DNA of 64,000 nucleotides. It comes from a virus. The position numbers and the translations under genes are program-made. The stretch covers positions 1 to 64,000 of IMG/VR virus record IMGVR_UViG_3300037247_000847; one strand, written 5' to 3'. Below are positions 2,049 through 13,731 of this stretch, one piece after another (the stretch's first letter is position 1; the number at the start of each line of letters is the position of its first letter). A model generated the notes under the pieces. The model saw only the letters and a list, made by a program, of their open reading frames with translations, did no database searches and was not told where the DNA came from.

Positions 2049-2124
2049 TGGTTTAGATGACTGGAATTGAACCAGCTACATCCTGCTACAAGGCAGGTGC
2101 TCTATCCAAATGAGCTACATCTGG
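2049..2124 (-). tRNA. atypical or pseudo tRNA, Thr(UGU)-like, with 6-nt anticodon loop and unpaired top of acceptor stem
   Basis: Minus strand CCAGATG TA GCTC ATTTGGATA GAGC A CCTGC CTTGTA GCAGG ATGTA GCTGG TTCAATT CCAGT CATCTAA A CCA; D and T arms canonical, CCA encoded, C1/A72 and C2/A71 mismatched. Confidence 0.7.
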
Positions 2125-2167
2125 TATCGCTCCATCAATCGGAAGCCAACACACCTTGAAACTGAGT

Positions 2168-2245
2168 AATGACCGCTCTACCACTGAGCTACTCCGCCAT
2201 AGAGTATTGGAGGCGGGGGTTGGATTCGAACCAACGTCTGTCATT
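2168..2245 (-). ncRNA. circularly permuted tRNA-like module (YrlA Y-RNA-like)
   Basis: Minus strand order is ATGAC-AGAC-T arm (GTTGG TTCGAAT CCAAC)-CCCCGCC T CCA-9-nt linker-GGCGGAG TA-D arm (GCTC AGTGGTA GAGC)-G-GTCAT, i.e. 3' half before 5' half, open at the anticodon. Confidence 0.85.
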
Positions 2246-2353
2246 TGATTTGGCATGTCCTATCCAATCGAGTTTCGCGGTTACTGACACTTAGGGGACA
2301 AAACAGAGACTTGTAGCTGGGTTGGCGCTATGCGACTTCCCGATGCTACGTTT

Positions 2354-4029: not shown

Positions 4030-4072
4030 AAAAAGAAAGGGCTGTAGTGAGGGGAGACCACTACAACCCTTT
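4030..4072 (-). terminator. intrinsic terminator
   Basis: Minus strand AAAGGGTTGTAGTGG TCTCCCC TCACTACAGCCCTTT followed by CTTTTT. Confidence 0.8.
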
Positions 4073-4987: not shown

Positions 4988-5236
4988 TCACTCTCCTATG
5001 ACTATCTTTTCAGTTGGAAACGCAGAATTAGGAACATACGCGTGTTCGTGATCTACGGTGTGATAACGTAAGACCGCTGCATCGTCTTTAAATGTAATCC
5101 AGCTTTTTACTGCAGGATAAACGGTCTTGCCACATTCTGGGCAGTGATTAGGTAATCTAGGATTTATCCAACAGAGTTGATGACCACAACACTCCATTAC
5201 AATTAAGCGAAATGGTATTCGTTCGATTACTTTCAT
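4988..5236 (-). CDS. small zinc-ribbon-like protein
   Basis: CCGH...CPECG; AGGAGGA SD; preceded by HHR1. Confidence 0.75.
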   Translation of the reverse strand: MKVIERIPFRLIVMECCGHQLCWINPRLPNHCPECGKTVYPAVKSWITFKDDAAVLRYHTVDHEHAYVPNSAFPTEKIVIGE

Positions 5237-5248
5237 AATCTCCTCCTA

Positions 5249-5317
5249 TTGGTTTATCTCATCAGTACTAGAATAACCAATTCTAGTAGACCAAGACTAC
5301 CTGTCTTGGTTTCGATA
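5249..5317 (-). ncRNA. type II hammerhead ribozyme HHR1
   Basis: TATC GAAA CCAAGAC aggta GTCTTG GTC^ TACTAGAA ttggtta TTCTAGTA CTGATGA GATA AACCAA; loop I pairs with the 3' tail; predicted cut 5289^5288. Confidence 0.95.
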
Positions 5318-5321
5318 CGGT

Positions 5322-5414
5322 TAGACCTATTTTAGGACCGCCTCCAAGGCCTGCAGACGAGGATTTGACCCTTCAAGGGTAAAAACCCTACCTAATTTAG
5401 TTTCGTTGGTCTAC
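5322..5414 (-). repeat. dispersed ~93-bp repeat, copy A
   Basis: Reverse complement matches 63133-63225 with 2 mismatches and 35711-35782 partially; contains the ACCCTTGAAGGGT palindrome. Confidence 0.9.
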
Positions 5415-5437
5415 AGACGGTCCTAGCCTGGTTTCGG

Positions 5438-5596
5438 TTATTTCTTCTTTTTACCTCTCATCAATCTCTCGTGCTCCCGCTGGAGCTTGTCGATCGCCTT
5501 TCGTTTTTGTGTAGCTTCATCCTTGACCCGACTACGATACCTCTTGTCGATCTTTGTCCAGAAGCGACGTTTGGCCTTGGTTTGTGCGGCGGTCAT
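5438..5596 (-). CDS. 52-aa basic protein MTAAQTKAKRRFW... (not in the ORF track)
   Basis: ATG overlaps the stop of the upstream ORF (ATGA); open to TAA at 5438. Confidence 0.55.
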   Translation of the reverse strand: MTAAQTKAKRRFWTKIDKRYRSRVKDEATQKRKAIDKLQREHERLMRGKKKK

Positions 5597-5865
5597 AATG
5601 TTTTATTCACTTCTTCAGCCTTTTTAAGTGCGTCAGCGTGTTCGCTCTCGACTGAGATACGGATTGCATTTAGCACTTCACCCACTGTCAATGTAGGCAG
5701 ATCGGCGATCATATCGATCGCACCTACGACTGCAGTAAGGGTTAGAATGTCGGCCTCGGGTTGCGGGACGTTATGGTACTCAGTGAGTTCGTGTGCCGCG
5801 CCTCGGATGCAGAGACGCACGGCCCCTTGTAACTCGTTGAGGATATGGTTATAGATTGGTAGCAT
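5593..5865 (-). CDS. hypothetical protein
   Basis: AGGAGGAG SD, preceded by HHR2. Confidence 0.75.
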   Translation of the reverse strand: MLPIYNHILNELQGAVRLCIRGAAHELTEYHNVPQPEADILTLTAVVGAIDMIADLPTLTVGEVLNAIRISVESEHADALKKAEEVNKTL

Positions 5866-5884
5866 TTTGATCTCCTCCTATATT

Positions 5885-5964
5885 TGAGATACCTCATCAG
5901 GCTGTAGTCTCTCATACTACAGCGACCACATATCAAGTAATACAACTTGATATGTGGTTTCGGC
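5885..5964 (-). ncRNA. type II hammerhead ribozyme HHR2
   Basis: GCC GAAA CCACATATCAAGT..ACTTGATATGTG GTC^ GCTGTAGT atgagag ACTACAGC CTGATGA GGT aTCTCA; cut 5924^5923. Confidence 0.93.
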
Positions 5965-6360
5965 TCAATCATGGGTAAATAGATCGTGTAGACGACGACG
6001 TAGTCTTTTCATTTTGCGTTTATTTGCTGCTTCCAGCCTCTTTTTAGTAGAGGGACTTAGTCTCTTTCTACGTGCCCTCCTATCTTGTTTCTCGTTGAAT
6101 ATCCTCCGACTTTTTGTGGTCCATGGAAGATGATTTGGACGTTTAGGTTTGTTGCTAACTACAGGTTCCTGTTCTACCCACTTTTTGGCACGACCCTTCC
6201 GCTTTTTTAGTCTAGGACCTTTTTTGATTAGCTTGCGAGGTCCTTTACCTCTTGGCCGTTTGATGGGTTTGACTTCAGCAGTGGTTTTGACACCATCAGC
6301 GATAGCTGGAGGACAATTCTTTACCTTAGTCTTTTTGGAGCGGGTGGACTTCTTAACCAT
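5965..6360 (-). CDS. very Lys/Arg-rich basic protein
   Basis: 131-aa ORF with AGGAGAGG SD; composition suggests nucleic-acid binding. Confidence 0.7.
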   Translation of the reverse strand: MVKKSTRSKKTKVKNCPPAIADGVKTTAEVKPIKRPRGKGPRKLIKKGPRLKKRKGRAKKWVEQEPVVSNKPKRPNHLPWTTKSRRIFNEKQDRRARRKRLSPSTKKRLEAANKRKMKRLRRRLHDLFTHD

Positions 6361-6377
6361 TTTCCCTCTCCTGATTT

Positions 6378-6686
6378 CTAAAGTTTTTCGATTAGAGTGA
6401 TGGGTGTAACGACGGCACCAAGTCCGGTAGCAACCTTAGTGATGGTTTCTTCTTGCTCACGTGGGCAGCGAATAAGAAGTGTGGATTGTTTTAAACCACC
6501 CATCCGCCGAAGGATCCCTTCAGCAGCAATCTTTGTCCAGTAAGGACAAGGCATGCCTCTAAGCCAATTAGATATCGAAGCTATATCCACGCCAAAAGCT
6601 TCGGCGATCTGCTGGGTAGTAAGACCAGTATCGCGAAGTTTTTGTAGATGCATGTTGGACTCAGCCTTCTTGTGGGTCTTAGTCAT
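6378..6686 (-). CDS. XRE/Cro-like helix-turn-helix protein
   Basis: GLTTQQIAEAFGVDIASISNWLRG HTH; preceded by HHR3. Confidence 0.8.
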   Translation of the reverse strand: MTKTHKKAESNMHLQKLRDTGLTTQQIAEAFGVDIASISNWLRGMPCPYWTKIAAEGILRRMGGLKQSTLLIRCPREQEETITKVATGLGAVVTPITLIEKL

Positions 6687-6700
6687 AATCTCCTCCTATG

Positions 6701-6768
6701 TGACTTGTCATCATCAGATACTAAGTAGTCATCTTAGTGTGACCAAGACTACCTGTCTTGGTTTCGAC
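6701..6768 (-). ncRNA. type II hammerhead ribozyme HHR3 (extra U after A9, one C-A mismatch in stem I)
   Basis: GTC GAAA CCAAGAC aggta GTCTTG GTC^ ACACTAAG atgacta CTTAGTAT CTGATGA t GAC aAGTCA; cut 6741^6740. Confidence 0.88.
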
Positions 6769-6769
6769 T

Positions 6770-7987
6770 TTAGTTTATCATCACCATTTCTCCAAATGGT
6801 ATTTCTCTTGCTCGACATTCAGCCGGAATGGTCCAGAGCACTGGAAAGGGTGGCGGAACCTTTGGGAATGATCCGTAAGTGTCAGTCAGATAGATCATAC
6901 CCTTTGGTGTGATACACCTTTCTTCTAACCAAGAGAAGGTTGGTAGAAAGCTTGTACTACCACCACCATAGGTACGTCCCGGCTTAATTGGTAGGTCTTC
7001 TTTACCATATTCGTCAACGTGCTGTACTTTCACATCCACGTACATGATGTGTAACTTACGGAACTTTAGCACGGAGGCGATCTTGGAGACCTCACCAAGA
7101 AATTGTGGGATGTAACGTAGCGTTGAGCCAGACGTATCTAGCACTACGACAAACTCATCTACACCTTCACTCTCAAGTCCTGGCAGGTATATGTCTTGAT
7201 TTAAGAAGCGGCGATCAGGTACTAACCAAGTGAAGTCATCCTGATTGCAGTTCTCCATGAACCTTTCGAGTACCTGTTCCCAACGGATCTTGGGGTTCAG
7301 GATCTCTTCGACTAGTTCATCGAGACTACCAGGTAGCTTCCCCTGAGCCTTGGCGAAGTTCATGGCTTGAGCAATTTGCATCAGGGCTTCAGCTTCATCA
7401 AAATCTGCACCTGATAAAGCTGCGGAAGATGGTTGAGAACCATTCTCGTTATAATCATCCTGGAGACCGGTGAGGCCGGTCTCCGGCTTTTGATCTTTCT
7501 GATCCTGATTTGGTTGTGAAGGATGATCGTGAAGACCACCGCATCCACAGCCTCCCTTTTCTTCGGCCTGCTTGTTGGCCGGATCATCAGGGTCTTGTGA
7601 TAGAATGTTGTAGATCTTCTCTGCATCCATCCCTCGGAACCGATCGTCAATCAGGTAATCGTCTCCTAATTTTAGACCGCTGTCCTGGAGATACAGATTG
7701 ATCCTGTAGTCACAGGCGATATTCCAGCGCTTGGGATCTCGAAGACCTCGACGGAAGCTGTCGAGGAACATCTTGTGTCCACCCTCGTGAGCAAGATCAG
7801 TGACGAGAATGGTCTCGTTCTGCTGCTCTACGTAGTCTGGATTGAAAAACAACCTAACTCCATCTGTCACCATCGTTTGGATAACAGTGGAGGGTTGTAT
7901 CTCAAAGCCCAATATTAGGCTTCCCCAGAAGGGATACATCCTAAGCAGCCTGGTTATGCACCTGTCGACTTTCATTTGTGCATTCAT
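6770..7987 (-). CDS. metallopeptidase-like plus vWA domain protein (DUF2201-like)
   Basis: TMVTDG..FNPDY, AHEGGH (HExxH), WNIACDYRIN, VLDTSGS MIDAS, GGGSTSF, YLTDTYG. Confidence 0.9.
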   Translation of the reverse strand: MNAQMKVDRCITRLLRMYPFWGSLILGFEIQPSTVIQTMVTDGVRLFFNPDYVEQQNETILVTDLAHEGGHKMFLDSFRRGLRDPKRWNIACDYRINLYLQDSGLKLGDDYLIDDRFRGMDAEKIYNILSQDPDDPANKQAEEKGGCGCGGLHDHPSQPNQDQKDQKPETGLTGLQDDYNENGSQPSSAALSGADFDEAEALMQIAQAMNFAKAQGKLPGSLDELVEEILNPKIRWEQVLERFMENCNQDDFTWLVPDRRFLNQDIYLPGLESEGVDEFVVVLDTSGSTLRYIPQFLGEVSKIASVLKFRKLHIMYVDVKVQHVDEYGKEDLPIKPGRTYGGGSTSFLPTFSWLEERCITPKGMIYLTDTYGSFPKVPPPFPVLWTIPAECRAREIPFGEMVMIN

Positions 7988-8003
7988 TTTCTCCTCCTAT
8001 ATT

Positions 8004-8077
8004 TGAGATGTCTCATCAGGTTGTAGTCTCTCACACCACAACGACCACGCCCCGTTTGCACGAGACGTGGTTTCGAC
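8004..8077 (-). ncRNA. type II hammerhead ribozyme HHR4
   Basis: GTC GAAA CCACGTCTCG tgcaaa CGGGGCGTG GTC^ GTTGTGGT gtgagag ACTACAAC CTGATGA GAC aTCTCA; G-U pairs form on this strand only; cut 8043^8042. Confidence 0.95.
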
Positions 8078-8084
8078 TTTAGTC

Positions 8085-8330
8085 TTAATTTGGTTCTTTG
8101 GAGGTAATGATCTCAGCGCAACGAGCTAGGGCATCGTCGGTCATTTCAATCATTGAACCCAGACGATGCCTTAGCACCAAGAGATCCTTAATTAGCAGTC
8201 TGGGCTTACCATATTTGGTCTTTTGGTAACACCGTTTTACAGCTTCAGTGACATCACTAGCTTGGTAAAAGAGACCTCCGCTGCTGGTAGTAAAATCACC
8301 GATTTTGTTGTCTAGTGTTCTCTTAGTCAT
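8085..8330 (-). CDS. hypothetical protein
   Basis: ATGA overlap with the upstream gene. Confidence 0.6.
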   Translation of the reverse strand: MTKRTLDNKIGDFTTSSGGLFYQASDVTEAVKRCYQKTKYGKPRLLIKDLLVLRHRLGSMIEMTDDALARCAEIITSKEPN

Positions 8331-9235
8331 GAGATGTAGCCCTTCATGGATTTCAGGATCGCGTCTGCCGATTTGGCAACCTCCTTGCGATACTTAGGAT
8401 CGTTTCTGAGAGCCTTTACATCGCTGACCGAACAGATTTCCTTTTCAGTCTGCTTGATCATCGCCGCGATCTTAGGATCGTTTAGGACGTTCAGCGATGG
8501 TAGAATTTCAACCAACTCCTGGATGTTACCGATCAACGAGTCCCTGAAGACCGCATCTTTCTCGTGCAGCTTCTCTTGAACGTGTCTCAGCTGTTCATAG
8601 AGACGTATGATTGGTGCCCGGAACGCGTCCTTCATATTGTTCTGGAAGTCTGCGAACATCTGCTTTTTGAGATCCTCAGAAGCATCCGCTGACATCTTGA
8701 CCCTAAAATCATTCGGGTCCTGGATAGGAGAAGTCCGGATGTGGATACCAAACTTGGTCCGGACCCGATTAGGTTCAGGATAGTCGTCTGCGTTGAACAT
8801 ATCACCGAGACCCTTTTTATAGTCTCCTAAACCAGCATGCCACTGTTCTTTGTACTCAGCAACAAACTCATCAGCGGCTTTCATGGCTTCGCGTTGCTTC
8901 TCCCCGATGACTTCCGTGTACTTGAAGTACATGTCAGCCGGAAGGAGACCAACTCCTTCCTCCCAAGGGAGCGTATAGTATTTGTGCAGCTTACGACACT
9001 GGCGGGACAGCTTTCTAAACGTGTCGAGAGCATCACTCTTGAGAAGTTGCTTGGTGAACTTCCCAAGCTCGGCATCTGAGTTCTTACTCTTTGCCACTTC
9101 CATAGCTATCTCACTGTCGTTCCGCTTGGCACCCCAACGGTTGATTTTGAGCCTAACGAGCATGGCTCGTGTACTCAGATCACTTGGGGTAGCCTTTGTC
9201 TTAGCTGACTTCGTGGTCTGCTTTGACTTACTCAT
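8327..9235 (-). CDS. DUF3150-like helical protein (usual partner of MoxR AAA and DUF2201)
   Basis: HKYYTLPW, LGDMFNADDYP, FRDSLIGNI..L..LNVLNDP pattern; gene context. Confidence 0.75.
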   Translation of the reverse strand: MSKSKQTTKSAKTKATPSDLSTRAMLVRLKINRWGAKRNDSEIAMEVAKSKNSDAELGKFTKQLLKSDALDTFRKLSRQCRKLHKYYTLPWEEGVGLLPADMYFKYTEVIGEKQREAMKAADEFVAEYKEQWHAGLGDYKKGLGDMFNADDYPEPNRVRTKFGIHIRTSPIQDPNDFRVKMSADASEDLKKQMFADFQNNMKDAFRAPIIRLYEQLRHVQEKLHEKDAVFRDSLIGNIQELVEILPSLNVLNDPKIAAMIKQTEKEICSVSDVKALRNDPKYRKEVAKSADAILKSMKGYIS

Positions 9236-9247
9236 AATCTCCTCCTA

Positions 9248-9315
9248 TTGGTTTGTCTCATCAGTGTCAAAGTAACCAACCTTGACAGACCTAGACTACC
9301 TGTCTAGGTTTCGAC
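9248..9315 (-). ncRNA. type II hammerhead ribozyme HHR5
   Basis: GTC GAAA CCTAGAC aggta GTCTAG GTC^ TGTCAAGG ttggtta CTTTGACA CTGATGA GAC aAACCAA; cut 9288^9287. Confidence 0.95.
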
Positions 9316-9318
9316 TTA

Positions 9319-9504
9319 CTACCACCTAGCAATATATTCTAAGATTGCCTTGTGTTTGGAGTTGAGGTTCAACACTATTGTTTCACTGGGTTTCTCATCA
9401 GTGAGACATTGACGACAGTCGATGCGTAATTCTACCTTGTCATTGGGATTGCACAACTCCATAGCGTCCCGCATTTCCTTTACGGTTGGCATATTGTTTT
9501 CCAT
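9319..9504 (-). CDS. hypothetical protein (CxxC)
   Basis: TAGGAGGAGATT SD identical to the neighbouring genes. Confidence 0.7.
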   Translation of the reverse strand: MENNMPTVKEMRDAMELCNPNDKVELRIDCRQCLTDEKPSETIVLNLNSKHKAILEYIARW

Positions 9505-9574
9505 AATCTCCTCCTATAGTCTTGATGCGATAGTGCATCACACAGCGCTCCTACCTGAAGCGCTGGTTGCCACA

Positions 9575-10693
9575 CTACAACATGTATTCTTGATTCTCCG
9601 TCGCCCATTGAACAAAAGCTGATGTTTCTAAGAGGCTGTTACCACGGTTCTTCACGAGAAGCATACCGAGGACTTCTACTGGCTTTTGGAACTTGTTGAT
9701 GAGTTCGACGAAGTTGTCCATTCGACCAGCATCGACGATGTCTGCCGTCGAAGTAACGAGAGCGAAGGCAACGTCAGGTCGCTGGGAAATTGGAGCAAGC
9801 CCAGCACTCACGACCTGTTTCGTTTGATCATTCCAAACATAACGCTCGAATGTCATGCCGTCGAGTGTGCTAGGATCATCGAGGATATCTTCGGGATCTG
9901 GCAGGTGAGCCCACAGCTTCAGAAAAGCTAGGAACTCAGTTGCGAAACCCTTGTCAGCTGCTCTCGAGATTAGCTCGAAGGCTGTACTCTCAGTGACAGC
10001 ACCTGAAGCCAGAAGCTGACCAACGTGATGCACCGTTCTTGGTGACCGGCTGTTTTCCAGTCCAGGCTTCGGACTAAAGTTCATCAGCATGTCCCGTTTC
10101 CAAGAGATGAATGCAGGCAAGATCGCTGGCATTGGTTCCTTGCGATCGAGCAGGCCAACATCATCGCACTGCGAAGCCCATTGCACCCAACTGTCAACAT
10201 TTACCTCTAGGTGAACGATGGTCTTGAACCTAGACTTGACATGCTCAAGGATCGGGTTGACGCCGGACTTGTCTTGGGCTCGGTTGGTTGCTGCACAGAT
10301 GCGAATATGATCACTAATTTTATTCTCGCCAATCTGACGAGCGTGGATTAGGTGACAAGTAGCATTCTGGGTAGCTGTCGAGCCTTGTCCAAAATCATCC
10401 ATGAAGAACACGGTTGGTTTCTTGGCCGTAACGAGCCGACGAAGATCGCCGATAGGAACGAAGTCCCACTCGGCTGGCTTCTTACCCGTTGCGGGCCGCG
10501 TCTGGGCTGGTATTCCACCGTAGTCGATTGGACTACGTACTGCTGGATGGGTGATGATAAGGTCCATCCCGACGTTCTTTGCCGCTTGCTCAATAAGGGC
10601 AGTCTTGCCGATGCCTGGCTCTCCTTCCGCTAGGAAGGATAACCCAGACTTGAACATGGTCTCGGCAAAGTTGATGAAATCTTGATAGTTCAT
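9575..10693 (-). CDS. MoxR-like AAA+ ATPase
   Basis: GEPGIGKT Walker A, FFMDDF Walker B, AATNR, SRF, SPRT; preceded by HHR6. Confidence 0.9.
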   Translation of the reverse strand: MNYQDFINFAETMFKSGLSFLAEGEPGIGKTALIEQAAKNVGMDLIITHPAVRSPIDYGGIPAQTRPATGKKPAEWDFVPIGDLRRLVTAKKPTVFFMDDFGQGSTATQNATCHLIHARQIGENKISDHIRICAATNRAQDKSGVNPILEHVKSRFKTIVHLEVNVDSWVQWASQCDDVGLLDRKEPMPAILPAFISWKRDMLMNFSPKPGLENSRSPRTVHHVGQLLASGAVTESTAFELISRAADKGFATEFLAFLKLWAHLPDPEDILDDPSTLDGMTFERYVWNDQTKQVVSAGLAPISQRPDVAFALVTSTADIVDAGRMDNFVELINKFQKPVEVLGMLLVKNRGNSLLETSAFVQWATENQEYML

Positions 10694-10705
10694 TTTCTCC
10701 TCCTA

Positions 10706-10773
10706 TTGGTTTGTCTCATCAGTGCCAAGATAACCAATCTTGACAGACCTAGGCTACCTGCCTAGGTTTCGAC
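10706..10773 (-). ncRNA. type II hammerhead ribozyme HHR6
   Basis: GTC GAAA CCTAGGC aggta GCCTAG GTC^ TGTCAAGA ttggtta TCTTGGCA CTGATGA GAC aAACCAA; compensatory changes relative to HHR5; cut 10746^10745. Confidence 0.95.
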
Positions 10774-10971
10774 TTATATCATTTCATCACCACCGTCGAT
10801 TCTCTTATAGTTAACTGGGTCATCGGTTTCGAGGGTGTGATACCCAGTAGGTTGTGTCCAAACCATGAAACGCGCCGCTGCGCTGCAGTGAGCTTCCAAC
10901 TCGGTAGCAAAACGTTGAGCATTACCCACTACTTCACCGTTTTGAAATTCAAACATTGGTCGGTACGACAT
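10774..10971 (-). CDS. hypothetical protein
   Basis: AGGAGGA SD; flanked by HHR7 and HHR6. Confidence 0.75.
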   Translation of the reverse strand: MSYRPMFEFQNGEVVGNAQRFATELEAHCSAAARFMVWTQPTGYHTLETDDPVNYKRIDGGDEMI

Positions 10972-10987
10972 AATCTCCTCCTATATT

Positions 10988-11054
10988 TGAGATGTCTCAT
11001 CAGGCCGTGAGCTCTCACCTCACAACAAGCGGGGTTACTCACCCCACTTTCGAC
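10988..11054 (-). ncRNA. type II hammerhead ribozyme HHR7 (CUU triplet; overlaps the end of the upstream CDS)
   Basis: GTC GAAA GTGGGGT gagta ACCCCG CTT^ GTTGTGAG gtgagag CTCACGGC CTGATGA GAC aTCTCA; cut 11027^11026. Confidence 0.85.
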
Positions 11055-11635
11055 TTTTTGGTTAAACGCTTCCTGCGTTTGGTAGGTTGTATATCGGCAA
11101 GATGTCTGCGCCGCTTTGGCTTAAAGAGCTGATATTGCCGTGAACTCGGCTTTTCAACATCACCTTTTTGCACCATGTTTTTTAGGCAGCGACGTGCTTC
11201 TCTTGTTTCTAGCCCTGTCTTTTTGCAGACTTGACCTACAGTGGTAGCACCATTCTTCAAAGCAGCGAGTATCAGTTCGCTGTGCGCTGATTGTGTAATC
11301 CCTTTACGTATTTTTCTGCCTTGGCGTTGGTCTAGCCGTTCTCGTCGTTCTGATTTTCTTAGATCACGCAATACTTTATGATGCCGAGCGCGTTTGGCTC
11401 GACCTCTCATTTCTTTTTGGGTGTCCTCACGATCTCTTTGCGCTTGTTTTCTCTCCTGATCTAGTTCGGCCCAGGATTCCTTGTGACGCTTCCACCGCTT
11501 CTTTGTCCACCGTTTGCGGTCTAAAAGCTTTGGTAGTGGGTAGTTGCTGAGGTACTCATTAGCCTCTTTGACCCTCAAGGCAACAGGACCTAGCTCTTTG
11601 GTGCTAGAAAGATGTTTCCTGATTCGAGTAGGCAT
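11039..11635 (-). CDS. basic protein with C-terminal winged-helix domain
   Basis: LILAALKNGATTVGQVCKKTGLETREARRCLKNMVQKGDV wHTH; AGGTGAGG SD. Confidence 0.75.
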   Translation of the reverse strand: MPTRIRKHLSSTKELGPVALRVKEANEYLSNYPLPKLLDRKRWTKKRWKRHKESWAELDQERKQAQRDREDTQKEMRGRAKRARHHKVLRDLRKSERRERLDQRQGRKIRKGITQSAHSELILAALKNGATTVGQVCKKTGLETREARRCLKNMVQKGDVEKPSSRQYQLFKPKRRRHLADIQPTKRRKRLTKKSKVG

Positions 11636-11650
11636 TAGATGTCCTCACCT

Positions 11651-11869
11651 TTATTTGGAGCGTTTCGATTTTTTCTCAGGCTCTTTCTTTTGATTTACAC
11701 CAATACACTTGTCAGCCTCAGCCTTGGTGGTAAAGCGTTCCCGTAATGGGTTCATAGTGTCTTTCGTATTGTGTACCTGGTATCCGAAGATCATACTAGG
11801 ATCTTTGGTGTGTGAATGCTTGACCACCTTCAGGCCTTTTTCCTTATTGTGGCTTACCGTTGTCAACAT
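11651..11869 (-). CDS. hypothetical protein
   Basis: AGGAGGA SD, preceded by HHR8. Confidence 0.7.
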   Translation of the reverse strand: MLTTVSHNKEKGLKVVKHSHTKDPSMIFGYQVHNTKDTMNPLRERFTTKAEADKCIGVNQKKEPEKKSKRSK

Positions 11870-11881
11870 AATCTCCTCCTA

Positions 11882-11968
11882 TTGGTTTGTCATCATCAGT
11901 GTCAAAGTAACCAACTTTGACAGACCCGGCGTATTCTTGTTAGTGGTCTTTTCTAACCGGGTTTCGAC
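11882..11968 (-). ncRNA. type II hammerhead ribozyme HHR8 (enlarged loop III, extra U after A9)
   Basis: GTC GAAA CCCGG [27 nt] CCGG GTC^ TGTCAAAG ttggtta CTTTGACA CTGATGA t GAC aAACCAA; cut 11923^11922. Confidence 0.88.
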
Positions 11969-11970
11969 TT

Positions 11971-12342
11971 TCACACGAAGACGATGATAGGTTGTCCTGT
12001 TGGTAACATGACAGGATCAGATTGTGATTCGCCATAGGACTCAGCGTAGGAGTTCTCGTACATACCATATTTGATAGGAACGCGAACGTGCCCTGGTCGG
12101 GTCTTCCAGGTTTTAGGTTTGCCCGATACACGACATTCTCTAACATCCCCAAATCGATCAAGGAACGTAAGAACGTAACCAGGACGCAGGTTTTGAGCTT
12201 CACCTACGATCATGAAGCGGTATTCTTGATACCCATCGAACCGTGGTGGGTAATACCCTGATTTGGCTTGCATCGTTTTCGTCCTCTCACGTATGTGCGT
12301 AACCATCTTCCTCAATACCAATCCACATTTTCTGCCATTCAA
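11971..12342 (-). CDS. hypothetical protein (start may be internal)
   Basis: ORF in the early operon; CRVSGKPKTWKTRPGHVRVPIKYG motif. Confidence 0.65.
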   Translation of the reverse strand: MNGRKCGLVLRKMVTHIRERTKTMQAKSGYYPPRFDGYQEYRFMIVGEAQNLRPGYVLTFLDRFGDVRECRVSGKPKTWKTRPGHVRVPIKYGMYENSYAESYGESQSDPVMLPTGQPIIVFV

Positions 12343-12511
12343 TCATGATGCATGTATCACCGAAAGCAAATGTGGAGCGCGAAAGAAATTCGTCGAACGT
12401 TTCGTTGGTGTAGTAGTTACGGGTCCTGAGTTCGCTGACTGCTACACGACCGTCTTCCATGGGTTGGCGTTGAAAAATCTCGAACAGGGTCTCGTGCTGT
12501 TGCGGGGTCAT
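12287..12511 (-). CDS. hypothetical protein, first gene of the early operon
   Basis: AGGAGGAG SD, preceded by HHR9; ends MWIGIEEDGYAHT. Confidence 0.75.
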   Translation of the reverse strand: MTPQQHETLFEIFQRQPMEDGRVAVSELRTRNYYTNETFDEFLSRSTFAFGDTCIMIEWQKMWIGIEEDGYAHT

Positions 12512-12524
12512 GGTCTCCTCCTAT

Positions 12525-12601
12525 TAGTCTATCTCATCAGTGTCAGGAGACTATTCCTGACAGACCAGGGTAGGTGATTGCTCACCTACCCTGATTTCGA
12601 T
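12525..12601 (-). ncRNA. type II hammerhead ribozyme HHR9
   Basis: ATC GAAA TCAGGGTAGGTGA gcaa TCACCTACCCTG GTC^ TGTCAGGA atagtc TCCTGACA CTGATGA GAT aGACTA; GNRA loop III; cut 12563^12562. Confidence 0.93.
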
Positions 12602-13020
12602 TTATAGGAGGAGGAGATTTTTTCCCAACCGGGATAGTCCACTTACGAAGTGGAGGGTAACACCCTACGCGCTGCACGTGACCAATTTTCTTGTACTCGT
12701 TCCACCCCGTTGCGGTTCAAAGCGTTATACCACTTGGGGTAGCCATCGGCCTAGGTCCAGTATTGTTGCCCGTTAATGCTGGATTGACTACCAGCGGCGG
12801 TCAGCAGACAACCCGGACTAAGGTCTCTGGGGATCGTTCCACGTGTGCTTACGCAGGTTCACCCGGCTGACAGCGACTTCGCGGGAATTCCTTTCCCATC
12901 GCTGGGCCTCCTGGGGGTTCCGGCTATCCTCGCCACTACGCGTGAGGGGTGAGCTTTGCGCTTCTTCTCCCAGGGCCGCCCCATTCCCAGAGGCCTGGAT
13001 AACTAAATTCTTATCTAACT
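12602..13020 (-). ncRNA. candidate ~420-nt structured leader RNA of the early operon
   Basis: No convincing ORF; GC-rich with many hairpins; lies between a promoter and HHR9. Confidence 0.5.
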
Positions 13021-13142: not shown

Positions 13143-13731
13143 GTCCTAACGAATTTTACCACTTTTTGATGGCAGGCAAAAGCGAGCATATTTCAAAGGC
13201 TTAGAAGCTTTTCGGGCTTTCTATTATCCCTTTGTAACCAGAAAGTGTGGTTATTGTGGTAATTAGTGTGTTCTAACTAATACACTAATAAAACACTAAC
13301 CAGCAAAATCAATGGCTTGTGGTAATAGACCACCCACGTTTAGTATAAAAGCCTACGTGGGGCCTTTGCGTCCTACGTTGTCTCAACCTTCATGTCATCT
13401 TGCGACTGTCAGGGTAGATTTCTCTCCGGAGAGGTCTGCCCTGACTTCTTTTTGATTGCTCGGTGCTGCGGCAGCGGTTAGAGCCGTCCCGAGGGCGGCG
13501 CGCTGTAGGGAAGTCGATCAACCATATTCTAGACAATGCGGTTGCGATGGAGCCGGGGGTTGGTTTCCGGCCTGCAGCACTGAGCAATTCATTAGTAGGG
13601 ACATAAAGAACGTGGTAGCTAGACGGAAGCGATTAAATGGTAATATAGGTAGTACCCTCTCTGTTGTACCCACACGCAATCATTTGACATCAGTAATAGT
13701 CTCTAAATATCCCAACATAGCTAGACGTAGA

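Follow-up and report, generated by a model that had tools for sequence, protein, structure and literature searches.

An array of nine predicted type II hammerhead ribozymes in a phage operon and its proposed role in transcript processing

Hammerhead ribozymes that lie in clusters, bordering individual genes or small groups of genes, have been described in prophages of Clostridium scindens, Azorhizobium caulinodans and Agrobacterium tumefaciens (Perreault et al. 2011, PMC3088659). In that report, long phage transcripts were proposed to be processed into single-gene mRNAs, triple arrays cleaved polycistronic RNA both in vitro and in Escherichia coli, the genes flanked by hammerheads were not constant, and spliced or circular products of the clustered hammerheads were sought and none was found. 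Type II hammerheads beside phage genes also cleave in vivo in Desulfovibrio vulgaris (PMC8782182).

Here we analysed a stretch of 64,000 nt (the window) from a 95,947-bp phage genome (about 96 kb; IMG/VR record IMGVR_UViG_3300037247_000847), the minus strand of which carries nine type II hammerheads in one operon. A preliminary description had suggested that no operon-wide array of this kind had been described, a claim that goes too far, as clustered phage hammerheads with the same proposed role already appear in the 2011 report (PMC3088659). The array belongs with the clustered hammerheads known from phages since 2011, among which it is large and very regular; it is not the extreme case, as another IMG/VR contig has about 25. 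As in the prophage clusters, several co-oriented hammerheads flank genes in phage DNA; the scale is larger, with nine in this operon and, in other contigs, about 10 or about 25, compared with the three tested in 2011. All copies in the present operon are type II and stand at a fixed distance from a strong Shine–Dalgarno (SD) sequence and AUG, upstream stop codons adjoin or lie inside the ribozymes, and the first copy is predicted to be clamped by an anti-SD sequence, regularities that the accessible portions of PMC3088659 do not state.

Identity and pairing of the nine elements

On sequence grounds, the nine elements are bona fide type II hammerheads of the Rfam RF02276 kind. The CUGAUGA motif (minus-strand starts at 5259, 5894, 6711, 8013, 9258, 10716, 10997, 11893 and 12534), the GAAA motif and the A15.1–U16.1 and C11.1–G10.1 pairs are present in all nine, and the cleavage-site nucleotide is never G (GUC in eight copies, CUU in HH7). 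Pairwise identity among the copies is 40–92%; 99.1% of the cells in the nine-copy alignment are paired, compared with 70.5% in shuffles, and compensatory changes that alter both sides occur in 20 of 24 pairs, including four of the five pseudoknot pairs. The pseudoknot, in which loop I pairs with the 3′ tail over 5 bp, is found in every copy, in the versions UUGGUU (four), UGAGA (three), UGACU and UAGUC, and stem II reads GUC/GAC in six copies and is compatible in the remainder. The identity matrix reveals subfamilies (HH5/HH6, 92% identical; HH5/HH8, 85%; HH2/HH4, 73%). HH3 has one C·A mismatch within stem I, and in both HH3 and HH8 one additional U separates CUGAUGA from stem II, an insertion that recurs in 17 of 60 elements from other arrays. 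Like RF02276 (PMC3088659), the elements have the permutation with stem II open, the core, a short stem II and a pseudoknot that joins loop I to the segment just past that stem, but some have long stem III inserts (loops of up to 29 nt) and two have the extra U.

A descriptor scan of the whole 95,947-bp genome found eight elements and no hammerhead outside the operon, whereas 30 shuffles gave 0–1 each (mean of 0.13). The strict descriptor missed HH3 owing to its stem I mismatch, and the HH3 cut was placed by alignment. A covariance model, R1, built from eight copies with HH8 left out of the seed, recovers all nine at 64–86 bits, with the next match at only 13 bits. RF02276 itself (cut-off 37) reports four copies, at 40.8, 40.6, 38.7 and 35.9 bits, three of them above the cut-off, and its search leaves the other five unreported altogether, indicating that such arrays are under-annotated. 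The preliminary description was borne out on the nine minus-strand elements with a full core, on their paired stems of differing sequence and on the counts of the four covarying pseudoknot versions, and the Infernal-type check against Rfam that it had suggested recovers four copies and leaves five unreported. From the first hammerhead of the operon to the last, the elements and the cassettes that they lead are as follows.

12523–12603, minus strand: HH9, the operon's first hammerhead (Rfam 40.8 bits, R1 67.8 bits); stem II AUC/GAU, 14-bp stem III, pseudoknot UAGUC/GACUA, predicted cut after 12563; SD at 12522–12515, AUG at 12511; 74-aa ORF, then 111-aa ORF.
11881–11970, minus strand: HH8 (R1 64 bits, though absent from the seed alignment); stem II GUC/GAC with the extra U, 29-nt stem III loop, pseudoknot UUGGUU/AACCAA, predicted cut after 11923; preceding stop codon adjoins the element; AUG at 11869; 72-aa ORF, then 198-aa wHTH-like ORF.
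10983–11056, minus strand: HH7 (R1 80 bits); triplet CUU, pseudoknot UGAGA/UCUCA, predicted cut after 11027; stem III loop contains the stop codon (11041–11039) of the preceding 198-aa ORF; AUG at 10971; 65-aa ORF.
10705–10775, minus strand: HH6 (Rfam 40.6 bits, R1 86.2 bits); pseudoknot UUGGUU/AACCAA, predicted cut after 10746; AUG at 10693; 372-aa MoxR-like AAA ATPase, then 61-aa ORF (Pfam/PHROG matches).
9247–9317, minus strand: HH5 (Rfam 38.7 bits, R1 85.1 bits), 92% identical to HH6; predicted cut after 9288; AUG at 9235; ORFs of 302 aa, then 81 aa.
7999–8079, minus strand: HH4 (R1 78.5 bits); 12-bp stem III, pseudoknot UGAGA/UCUCA, predicted cut after 8043; AUG at 7987; 405-aa DUF2201 metallopeptidase/VWA-like protein.
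6698–6770, minus strand: HH3 (R1 78.8 bits); pseudoknot UGACU/AGUCA, predicted cut after 6741; AUG at 6686; 102-aa HTH protein, then 131 aa.
5880–5966, minus strand: HH2 (R1 69.4 bits); stem II GCC/GGU, 14-bp stem III, pseudoknot UGAGA/UCUCA, predicted cut after 5924; preceding stop codon overlaps the stem II strand; AUG at 5865; ORFs of 90 aa, then 52 aa.
5248–5318, minus strand: HH1, the last hammerhead (Rfam 35.9 bits, just under the cut-off; R1 80.9 bits); stem II UAUC/GAUA, pseudoknot UUGGUU/AACCAA, predicted cut after 5289; AUG at 5236; ORFs of 82 aa and 63 aa, then a 164–169-aa cpYpsA SLOG protein.

Cassette layout here and in other phages

As the preliminary description had stated, every ribozyme is followed within a few nucleotides by the same ribosome-binding site and a start codon: AUAGGAGGAG, 3–6 nt and AUG come after all nine elements, the SD begins 1–5 nt past the pseudoknot tail, and each AUG opens an ORF of 65–405 aa. 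Second and third cistrons of the cassettes have weaker SDs or overlapping stop and start codons. The AUAGGAGGAG 10-mer occurs ten times on the minus strand, only within the operon, and the tenth cassette has the following place.

9505–9574, minus strand: tenth AUAGGAGGAG-AUU-AUG cassette, opening a 61-aa ORF (9504–9319).

Two hairpins precede it without a GAAA or CUGAUGA core, and R1 gives no match at 9505–9574; it is predicted to be inactive and may represent a hammerhead that has decayed.

Eight of the nine previously predicted cuts were obtained again from the descriptor scan and that at 6741 by alignment. The 51–58-nt leaders were reproduced on recomputation, and the fragments of 640, 896, 281, 1458, 1245, 1302, 817 and 635 nt follow from subtraction of the cut sites. 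One ribozyme does stand before each cassette; the cassettes are not restricted to one or two genes, as had been proposed, and hold one to three. In folds of the predicted 3′ products, stem I lies at the 5′ end in all nine cases, flush or within 2 nt, and in seven the SD is no less accessible than it is in the precursor. The predicted 3′ ends of the upstream pieces lie 12–45 nt past a stop codon that usually adjoins or falls inside the ribozyme.

Arrays of about 7, 8, 10 and 25 hammerheads are present in other IMG/VR phage contigs. The largest, in contig G005, comprises 23–25 hammerheads, each with UUAGGAG and then AUG; nine of about ten in contig G001 precede the same AUAGGAGGAGAU(C/U)AUG, and AAGGAGG and then AUG follow seven of eight in contig L056. 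An SD and start codon within 30 nt were found for 52 of 60 hammerheads compared with 8% of controls, and for 23 of 38 in a second set compared with 7% of controls, neither set having been selected for the presence of an SD. At the sequence level, the order of ribozyme, SD and start codon is thus general, and it is conserved in phage contigs unrelated to this one. The genes between hammerheads vary widely across arrays, and shared genes are reordered in G005, in which distant homologues (22–27% identity) of the MoxR-like and DUF2201 genes are also led by hammerheads. No hammerheads were found in the cultured Thermus phage phiFa, which has homologous ATPase and DUF2201 genes, showing that these genes do not need them.

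Operon boundaries and the region upstream of HH9

The operon is bounded by the following features.

4036–4072, minus strand: terminator-like hairpin of 15 pairs with a U-run, after the cpYpsA gene.
12604–12617, minus strand: anti-SD UCUCCUCCUCCUAU, directly 5′ of HH9.
12618–13010, minus strand: GC-rich (0.55–0.68) stretch upstream of HH9, the presumed 5′ leader.

The transcription unit punctuated by the ribozymes probably ends at the hairpin, and there is no strong minus-strand terminator inside the operon. Given that the hammerheads are also co-oriented with the genes and placed between expression cassettes, self-processing is the natural reading. The operon encodes small ORFs that belong to no known family, HTH proteins and the MoxR-like ATPase/DUF2201 pair, and a long non-coding, ORF-less region precedes HH9; this gene content and adjoining region fit an early operon. 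Replication genes lie on the strand of the operon and virion genes on the opposite strand. Layout, terminator and gene content partly support the self-processing early transcript that had been suggested, although not one yielding exclusively one- or two-gene mRNAs.

The stretch at 12618–13010 has no convincing ORF and no Rfam match, and its fold z score is only −1.6; about 60 nt of it are conserved as a block in the G001 leader. HH9 would presumably cut this leader off. No promoter-like site with at least 9 of 12 matches was found upstream of HH9. HH9's own AUAGGAGGAG is perfectly complementary to the last 10 nt of UCUCCUCCUCCUAU; the two are paired in the minimum free energy fold (z of −5.5), and the probability that the SD is unpaired is 0.00 in the precursor compared with 0.45 in the free 3′ product. 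In the related G001 array, the same 14-nt anti-SD adjoins the first hammerhead, and on inspection neither phage sequence has a start codon on the opposite strand within about 30 nt of it. In these folding models, the conserved upstream anti-SD clamps the first hammerhead by pairing with its ribosome-binding site. After HH9 cleavage it would stay paired with the SD (about 13 bp in all), such that cleavage alone would not obviously free this site.

Proposed processing and its alternatives

We consider it likely that active type II hammerheads self-process one leftward, probably early unit of about 8.6 kb into cassette mRNAs, and it is plausible from the sequence that a polycistronic and probably early RNA is processed into mRNAs with one to three genes each. 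Cleavage itself, a single promoter, early timing, stabilisation and an effect on translation are the elements of this model that we infer. Transcription would run from above 12603 leftward to the hairpin at 4072–4036, from a presumed single promoter upstream of HH9, beside which there may be internal promoters. Each element would fold as RNA polymerase passes, with stems III and I as local hairpins, a 3–4-bp stem II, and the 5-bp pseudoknot docking stems I and II. The RNA would then cut itself after the H17 nucleotide with no host factor, dividing the transcript into a leader and nine mRNAs. Each upstream piece would have the stem III hairpin and a 2′,3′-cyclic phosphate at its 3′ end, and each downstream piece would start with a 5′ OH flush on the 8–9-bp stem I hairpin, in a uniform 51–58-nt leader presenting the genome's strongest SD (AGGAGGAG) 1–5 nt past the pseudoknot tail. 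If so, the cassettes would be likely to gain hairpin-protected ends, a standard, context-independent translation start resembling a natural insulator, and expression uncoupled from that of their neighbours.

RNase III reportedly cuts the T7 early transcript between genes, as Dunn and Studier are said to have shown in 1973. The proposed scheme would likewise cut a long early transcript between genes into stable mRNAs with hairpin 3′ ends; however, T7 needs a host protein and long imperfect duplexes, whereas here the RNA would cut itself, its stems are only 8–14 bp, and the ends would be 5′ OH and 2′,3′-cyclic phosphate. RiboJ-type synthetic ribozyme insulators, reportedly introduced by Lou et al. 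in 2012, similarly place a hammerhead directly upstream of the ribosome-binding site and remove variable upstream RNA to leave a standard leader. RiboJ is a type III sTRSV hammerhead with an added hairpin that exposes the ribosome-binding site; the present elements, by contrast, are type II without an extra hairpin, and their pseudoknot tail adjoins the SD. Like glmS (PMC7967978), they would generate a 5′-OH mRNA by self-cleavage in the 5′ leader, with its fate set by host 5′ nucleases; glmS, however, is ligand-dependent and destabilises its mRNA, whereas these ribozymes have no ligand pocket and the 5′ end would be buried in a hairpin.

The fate of such ends bears on a different reading, which we regard as unlikely: that the ribozymes tune or limit expression, either because a 5′ exonuclease (RNase J1, for example) can attack the 5′-OH ends, as for glmS, or because cleavage competes kinetically with ribosome loading, leaving each cassette with a short lifetime of its own or shutting early genes off at a set time. 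5′-OH RNA is stable in E. coli-like hosts, which the stabilisation put forward in the preliminary description fits. In Gram-positive bacteria, however, RNase J1 rapidly degrades ribozyme-cleaved 5′-OH RNAs, and hosts with this enzyme could decay the products (PMC7967978). The SD and the pseudoknot are so near to one another that ribosome binding is probably incompatible with the active ribozyme fold, which makes the efficiency of cleavage in vivo uncertain and would set the two in competition; the anti-SD clamp on the first cassette likewise suggests negative translational control. Against tuning, the ribozyme-led genes carry the genome's strongest SDs, fitting high expression, and every product is predicted to begin directly at an 8–9-bp hairpin or no more than 2 nt from one. 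Hairpins of this kind block 5′-end-dependent nucleases in bacterial mRNA decay, and in the modelled products the flush stem I would be a more general protector than the 5′ OH itself. Self-processing into cassette mRNAs can also accommodate much of a further proposal, that the ribozyme–SD modules are mainly duplicated boundary repeats that promote cassette shuffling by recombination, like the promoter/stem–loop repeats between T4 early genes, with cleavage secondary. The subfamilies of copies, the differing genes between arrays and their other order in G005, the inconstant flanked genes of Perreault et al. (PMC3088659) and the core-less relic at 9574–9505 all speak for shuffling. It nevertheless fails to explain an invariant core and compensatory changes across three helices and a pseudoknot in copies down to 40% identity; it is compatible with self-processing rather than an alternative to it, and as the principal explanation we think it quite improbable.

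Two other readings concern the cut itself. Each internal fragment would bear a 5′ OH and a 2′,3′-cyclic phosphate, and the type II halves are self-contained hairpins linked only by stem II, which is GUC/GAC in most copies and compatible in the others, so that hybrid hammerheads could form across junctions; fragments might then be joined into circular or spliced RNAs by hammerhead ligation or an RtcB-type ligase. We judge this very improbable, as only 3 bp would hold ends 281–1458 nt apart, Perreault et al. sought such products and found none (PMC3088659), and the part of the proteome that was scanned showed neither RtcB nor another RNA ligase. We give least credence to hammerhead-like folds without useful cleavage in vivo, serving as paired hairpins for stability or spacing between genes. 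The tenth cassette keeps two hairpins and an SD without a core, HH3 has its stem I mismatch, HH3 and HH8 have the inserted U, and not all hammerheads predicted by bioinformatics have worked in vitro (cited in PMC7967978). Yet all 13 core nucleotides, the A15.1–U16.1 and G10.1–C11.1 pairs and the pseudoknot are kept in the nine divergent copies and in 89 distinct relatives, a degree of conservation not easily accounted for unless catalysis is under selection.

Anatomy and detection of the nine hammerheads

Nine elements, all on the coding (minus) strand and within 7.4 kb, separate cassettes of one to three genes in the complete 95.9-kb phage genome, which has terminal repeats. They are numbered from HH9, the first in the operon, to HH1, the last:

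12603–12523, minus strand: HH9, predicted cut at 12563
11923, minus strand: predicted cut of HH8
11027, minus strand: predicted cut of HH7
10746, minus strand: predicted cut of HH6
9288, minus strand: predicted cut of HH5
8043, minus strand: predicted cut of HH4
6741, minus strand: predicted cut of HH3
5924, minus strand: predicted cut of HH2
5318–5248, minus strand: HH1, predicted cut at 5289

Reading the minus strand bore out the claim of the preliminary description that complete type II hammerheads stand at nine CUGAUGA sites. Each element has the order II′–GAAA–III–NUH–I–CUGANGA–II, in which loops close stems I and III, leaving stem II open; stem I spans 8–9 bp, stem III 7–14 bp and stem II 3–4 bp. 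CUGAUGA and GAAA are invariant across the nine copies, as are the closing pairs A15.1–U16.1 (AU in 9/9) and C11.1–G10.1 (CG in 9/9), and H17 is never G (C in eight copies, U in HH7). HH3 and HH8 carry one extra U after A9. The tail beyond the 3′ strand of stem II pairs with the 6–7-nt stem I loop, forming a pseudoknot of five in-register pairs that is 100% paired in all nine copies.

Pairwise identity among the copies is only 40–92%. In their alignment, 98.8% of the cells in nested pairs are paired, with compensatory changes in 16 of the 19 pairs. When the pseudoknot is included, 99.1% of cells are paired, compared with 70.5% in shuffles and 29–49% in slid controls, and both sides have changed in 20 of 24 pairs, among them four of the five pseudoknot pairs. 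The pseudoknot occurs in four sequence versions, as had been claimed. The idea that these versions are interleaved so as to avoid cross-pairing of neighbours was dropped: same-version pseudoknots are adjacent once, against about two adjacencies expected by our own arithmetic, which is not significant.

A strict descriptor was run over the whole 95,947-bp genome, a complete IMG/VR record bearing direct terminal repeats, of which the window is the first 64 kb. It returned eight elements, all within the array, and no other match genome-wide; HH3 was missed solely because of one C·A mismatch in stem I. In 30 shuffled genomes there were 0–1 matches each (mean 0.13). Moreover, a covariance model built from eight of the nine copies recovered all nine at 64–86 bits, including HH8, which was absent from the seed alignment, and the next-best match in the genome scored 13 bits. 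The Rfam type II model (RF02276; gathering cut-off 37 bits), named in the preliminary description as a means of corroboration, gave a divided outcome. It placed three copies above the cut-off (40.8, 40.6 and 38.7 bits) and one at 35.9 bits, and the remaining five went unreported even at E ≤ 10 in positions 5200–12650 of the window. With four of nine copies reported at that threshold, routine Rfam annotation would therefore miss the array.

Other identities do not fit the elements. RNase III sites of the T7 early-transcript type are intergenic imperfect duplexes of about 20 bp, acted on by host RNase III and without a catalytic RNA core. The elements here do not match them: helices of 8–14 bp, a full hammerhead core and covariation exclude this identity, and the complete catalytic core and covariation likewise rule out plain terminators. 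The RiboJ-type insulator was compared as a functional analogue only; in it, a ribozyme lies directly 5′ of the ribosome-binding site and a following hairpin keeps that site exposed. As in RiboJ, the ribozyme abuts the Shine–Dalgarno sequence (SD) in all nine elements; however, there is no added hairpin, it is the pseudoknot tail that abuts the SD, and the ribozymes are of type II, not III. The elements are thus not members of the RiboJ design, although they may work in an insulator-like way.

Operon layout and predicted self-processing

Each of the nine hammerheads is followed by AUAGGAGGAG, then 3–6 nt and an AUG, as the preliminary description had stated, and the ORFs so opened encode 65–405 aa. 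The 10-mer AUAGGAGGAG occurs ten times on the minus strand genome-wide, always inside the ribozyme operon. The tenth occurrence, at 9517, belongs to a cassette without a hammerhead:

9505–9574, minus strand: AUAGGAGGAG-AUU-AUG cassette heading a 61-aa ORF

Two hairpins precede this cassette, with neither GAAA nor a CUGAUGA core, and it may be a decayed hammerhead copy. Later cistrons of the cassettes have weaker SDs or overlapping stop and start codons. The recognisable operon products are a MoxR-like AAA ATPase (372 aa), a DUF2201 metallopeptidase/VWA-like protein (405 aa), two HTH-type proteins and a cpYpsA SLOG protein; what remains are small ORFs of no known family.

For seven of the eight internal elements, the stop codon upstream is either inside the ribozyme or no more than about 6 nt away from it; that of HH7 falls within the stem III loop. 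No strong terminator-like site was found on the minus strand between 12.6 and 4.1 kb, where the sole match has a stem of 5 bp; at 4072–4036 (minus strand) there is a hairpin of 15 pairs and a U-run. Terminase, portal-like, tail and lysis functions occupy the plus strand from 13.4 to 63 kb, and the minus strand runs on across the terminal repeat into replication and nucleotide-metabolism genes. This strand layout of virion and replication genes makes the ribozyme block the promoter-proximal portion of the leftward arm, a position that would fit early expression.

Three further features lie outside the ribozyme block, two of them downstream of the operon and one beyond its upstream end:

2049–2124, minus strand: tRNA-like gene with a shortened anticodon loop (no anticodon by ARAGORN; Rfam tRNA, 48 bits)
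2140–2256, minus strand: weak YrlA/Y-RNA-like match (34.8 bits against a cut-off of 69)
13408–13445, plus strand: strong terminator-like hairpin (17 pairs and a T-run) with no obvious gene upstream, just before a 272-aa ORF starting at 13456

The most likely course of events, judged from the sequence, is that a single transcript would cleave itself co-transcriptionally at each element, yielding a leader and nine mRNAs. Each upstream product would keep its stop codon and terminate with a cyclic phosphate on the stem III hairpin, and each downstream product would start with a 5′ OH on a flush stem I hairpin and bear a uniform leader and a very strong SD. The stem I hairpin forms in all nine predicted 3′ products. 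The predicted cut sites, the leaders of 51–58 nt and the fragments of 640, 896, 281, 1458, 1245, 1302, 817 and 635 nt (obtained by subtracting predicted cut sites) all reproduce, and the observation in the preliminary description was, as a whole, confirmed in every detail. The SD starts 1–5 nt past the pseudoknot, and ribosome binding and the active fold are therefore probably mutually exclusive. The earlier argument that 5′-OH ends would stabilise the mRNAs holds, as a prediction, for hosts without a 5′ exonuclease. Hosts with RNase J1 degrade 5′-OH ribozyme products (PMC7967978), and in such a host protection of the mRNA would have to come from the terminal hairpin rather than the hydroxyl.

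Precedent and arrays in other phages

Type II hammerheads and their pseudoknot were defined by Perreault et al. (2011, PMC3088659), who reported that prophage genes, singly or in short blocks, are often flanked by multiple hammerheads, and proposed processing of long phage transcripts into mRNAs the length of one gene or one operon. In that study, three tandem arrangements cleaved in vitro and one triple arrangement in E. coli; spliced or circular products were sought and none found. Circular mRNAs, which the fragment ends and the interchangeable stem II would permit in principle, are therefore unlikely in the present operon as well, all the more so as the contact would span only 3 bp. In vivo cleavage of type II hammerheads near phage genes has since been shown in Desulfovibrio vulgaris (PMC8782182), and a 2019 review regarded the role of the thousands of bacterial and phage hammerheads as still unresolved (PMC6765202). 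The present array matches the clustered arrangement of 2011, with nine co-oriented elements between cassettes of one to three genes in a complete phage genome, and it is an unusually large and regular case. The self-processing interpretation is reasonable and agrees with the published hypothesis. The preliminary description had taken the arrangement as undescribed, which is correct only in part: clustered phage hammerheads were already in print in 2011, but arrays of at least nine, or a systematic ribozyme–SD fusion, were not found described in the full texts searched, which is weak evidence given that most subscription journals lay outside that scope.

An IMG/VR pattern search (a hammerhead followed by AGGAGG) returned 65 loci, in which the covariance model found 133 hammerheads, often several per locus. 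Four IMG/VR contigs with arrays are listed below.

Hammerhead arrays in other IMG/VR phage contigs
G005, 64.8 kb (locus L066, G005:42500–62000): 25 hammerheads on one strand within 18.3 kb according to the model, 23 according to the descriptor
G001, 79.8 kb (locus L067, G001:26000–35000): 9 by the model and one variant-core copy
L056, a 12.8-kb contig: 8 hammerheads, 7 of them followed by AAGGAGG and AUG
G006, 77.4 kb (locus L114, 9.9 kb of the contig): 7 by the descriptor

In these arrays, nearly every copy precedes an SD context specific to its lineage (UUAGGAG, AUAGGAGGAG or AAGGAGG) and an AUG. In G005, each hammerhead is followed by its own pseudoknot tail, UUAGGAG and AUG; in G001, nine are followed by AUAGGAGGAGAU(C/U)AUG. 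The first G005 element (L066:116–190) has CCGAUGA instead of CUGAUGA, and this U4-to-C copy may be inactive; the first G001 element has CUGACGA. In a set of 89 distinct sequences, pairing in the three helices reaches 95.8%, and compensatory changes are abundant.

The ribozyme–SD link is not an artefact of the search pattern, as two tests showed. Among 60 non-redundant hammerheads from the 65 loci, chosen independently of that pattern, 52 have an SD and start codon within 30 nt, compared with 8% of random positions. In a second sample, collected with a pattern lacking the SD requirement, the figure was 23 of 38, compared with 7% of controls, and 4 of 21 hammerhead-bearing loci held 3–7 copies. 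This strong statistical link suggests that ribozyme and translation start evolved jointly, as a single module. Nature would then have reached the insulator design of synthetic biology first, and the elements would be a source of compact, orthogonal parts, with four pseudoknot versions in the one operon of the window. With nine regular ribozyme–SD–gene cassettes in a complete genome, the window offers an unusually clean test system for the processing and insulation hypothesis, which predicts eight fragment sizes, nine 5′-OH ends and nine cyclic-phosphate ends; the relatives, in which cassettes number up to about 25, broaden it. Standard Rfam scans undercount such arrays.

The G005 array encodes distant homologues (22–33% identity) of the ATPase, 302-aa and DUF2201 proteins of the window, and its ATPase and DUF2201 genes are hammerhead-led, as they are in the window; the remaining genes in other arrays are small and mostly without families. 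The portal-like protein had no match in G001, G005, G006 or a further array-bearing contig, G002, which are not close relatives in structural genes, or are incomplete. Megablast and blastn searches of 50,697 phage records with the region, one element, the leader and two other arrays gave no match, and the 405-aa protein retrieved no related locus among viral contigs. Identity to the DUF2201 protein is only about 30% even in its closest cultured homologues; the best is from Thermus phage phiFa, which carries homologous ATPase/DUF2201 genes and has no hammerhead. No cultured phage resembling the window or the other arrays emerged from the searches run. A pattern scan of prokaryote genomes returned 20 loci, among which the Streptococcus matches were chance matches, not hammerheads. 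The true arrays (2–4 copies) lie in MAG contigs from several phyla and therefore give no host clue.

The anti-SD and presumed leader upstream of HH9

Two features immediately precede the first hammerhead:

12617–12604, minus strand: UCUCCUCCUCCUAU (14 nt), the anti-SD, directly 5′ of HH9
12618–13010, minus strand: GC-rich stretch (0.55–0.68), the presumed leader, with no convincing ORF

The anti-SD was missing from the preliminary description. The final ten bases complement HH9's own AUAGGAGGAG exactly, and in the minimum-energy fold a 10-bp anti-SD/SD helix encloses the whole of HH9 (z −5.5). The predicted unpaired probability of the HH9 SD is 0.00 in the precursor versus 0.45 in the free 3′ product. 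Such a partner exists for HH9 only and is lacking at the other eight elements. In the G001 array, the identical 14 nt lie directly beside the first hammerhead (L067:1646–1659, plus strand), the sole match in a search for the anti-SD–hammerhead junction, and about 60 nt of the GC-rich leader can be aligned as a block with the G001 leader. The G005 leader has no anti-SD and could not be aligned to that of the window. G001 has a promoter-like site (TTTACA-17-TATATT) about 350 nt upstream of its first hammerhead; no site with at least 9 of 12 matches was found upstream of HH9. The leader at 12618–13010 matched no Rfam family and no tmRNA, and its folding z-score is weak on both strands.

Read on the opposite strand, the anti-SD would be a ribosome-binding site. 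On that strand, the next 30 nt or so contain no start codon in either phage (the window or G001), which rules out this reading, and the anti-SD is therefore an RNA-level feature. It might clamp the first ribosome-binding site, stabilise the first ribozyme beside a long structured leader, or serve as the active end of a leader RNA once released.

The generality of the ribozyme–SD–start cassette, arrays of up to about 25 copies and the conserved, putative anti-SD clamp on the first ribozyme go beyond what we found in print; the clamp points to an extra layer of control. Tentatively, and with some doubt, we read these observations jointly: dense ribozyme–SD–start arrays, up to about 25 per genome, may be a widespread phage expression strategy without a description in the literature searched, in which nearly every early gene block would become a separate mRNA headed by a standard, hairpin-capped leader. 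Rfam would undercount such arrays (4/9 here), and the first cassette would also be controlled by a conserved anti-SD clamp ending a long leader RNA that the first ribozyme cuts off. More speculatively, the leader, which includes an exact complement to the AUAGGAGGAG common to all ten cassettes, might on release shut off early translation in trans.

Two direct copies of GTGGTGCCAATAGCCC, 21 nt apart, also lie in the non-coding region upstream of HH9 (13142–13127 and 13121–13106, minus-strand reading) and are possibly a regulator-binding site.
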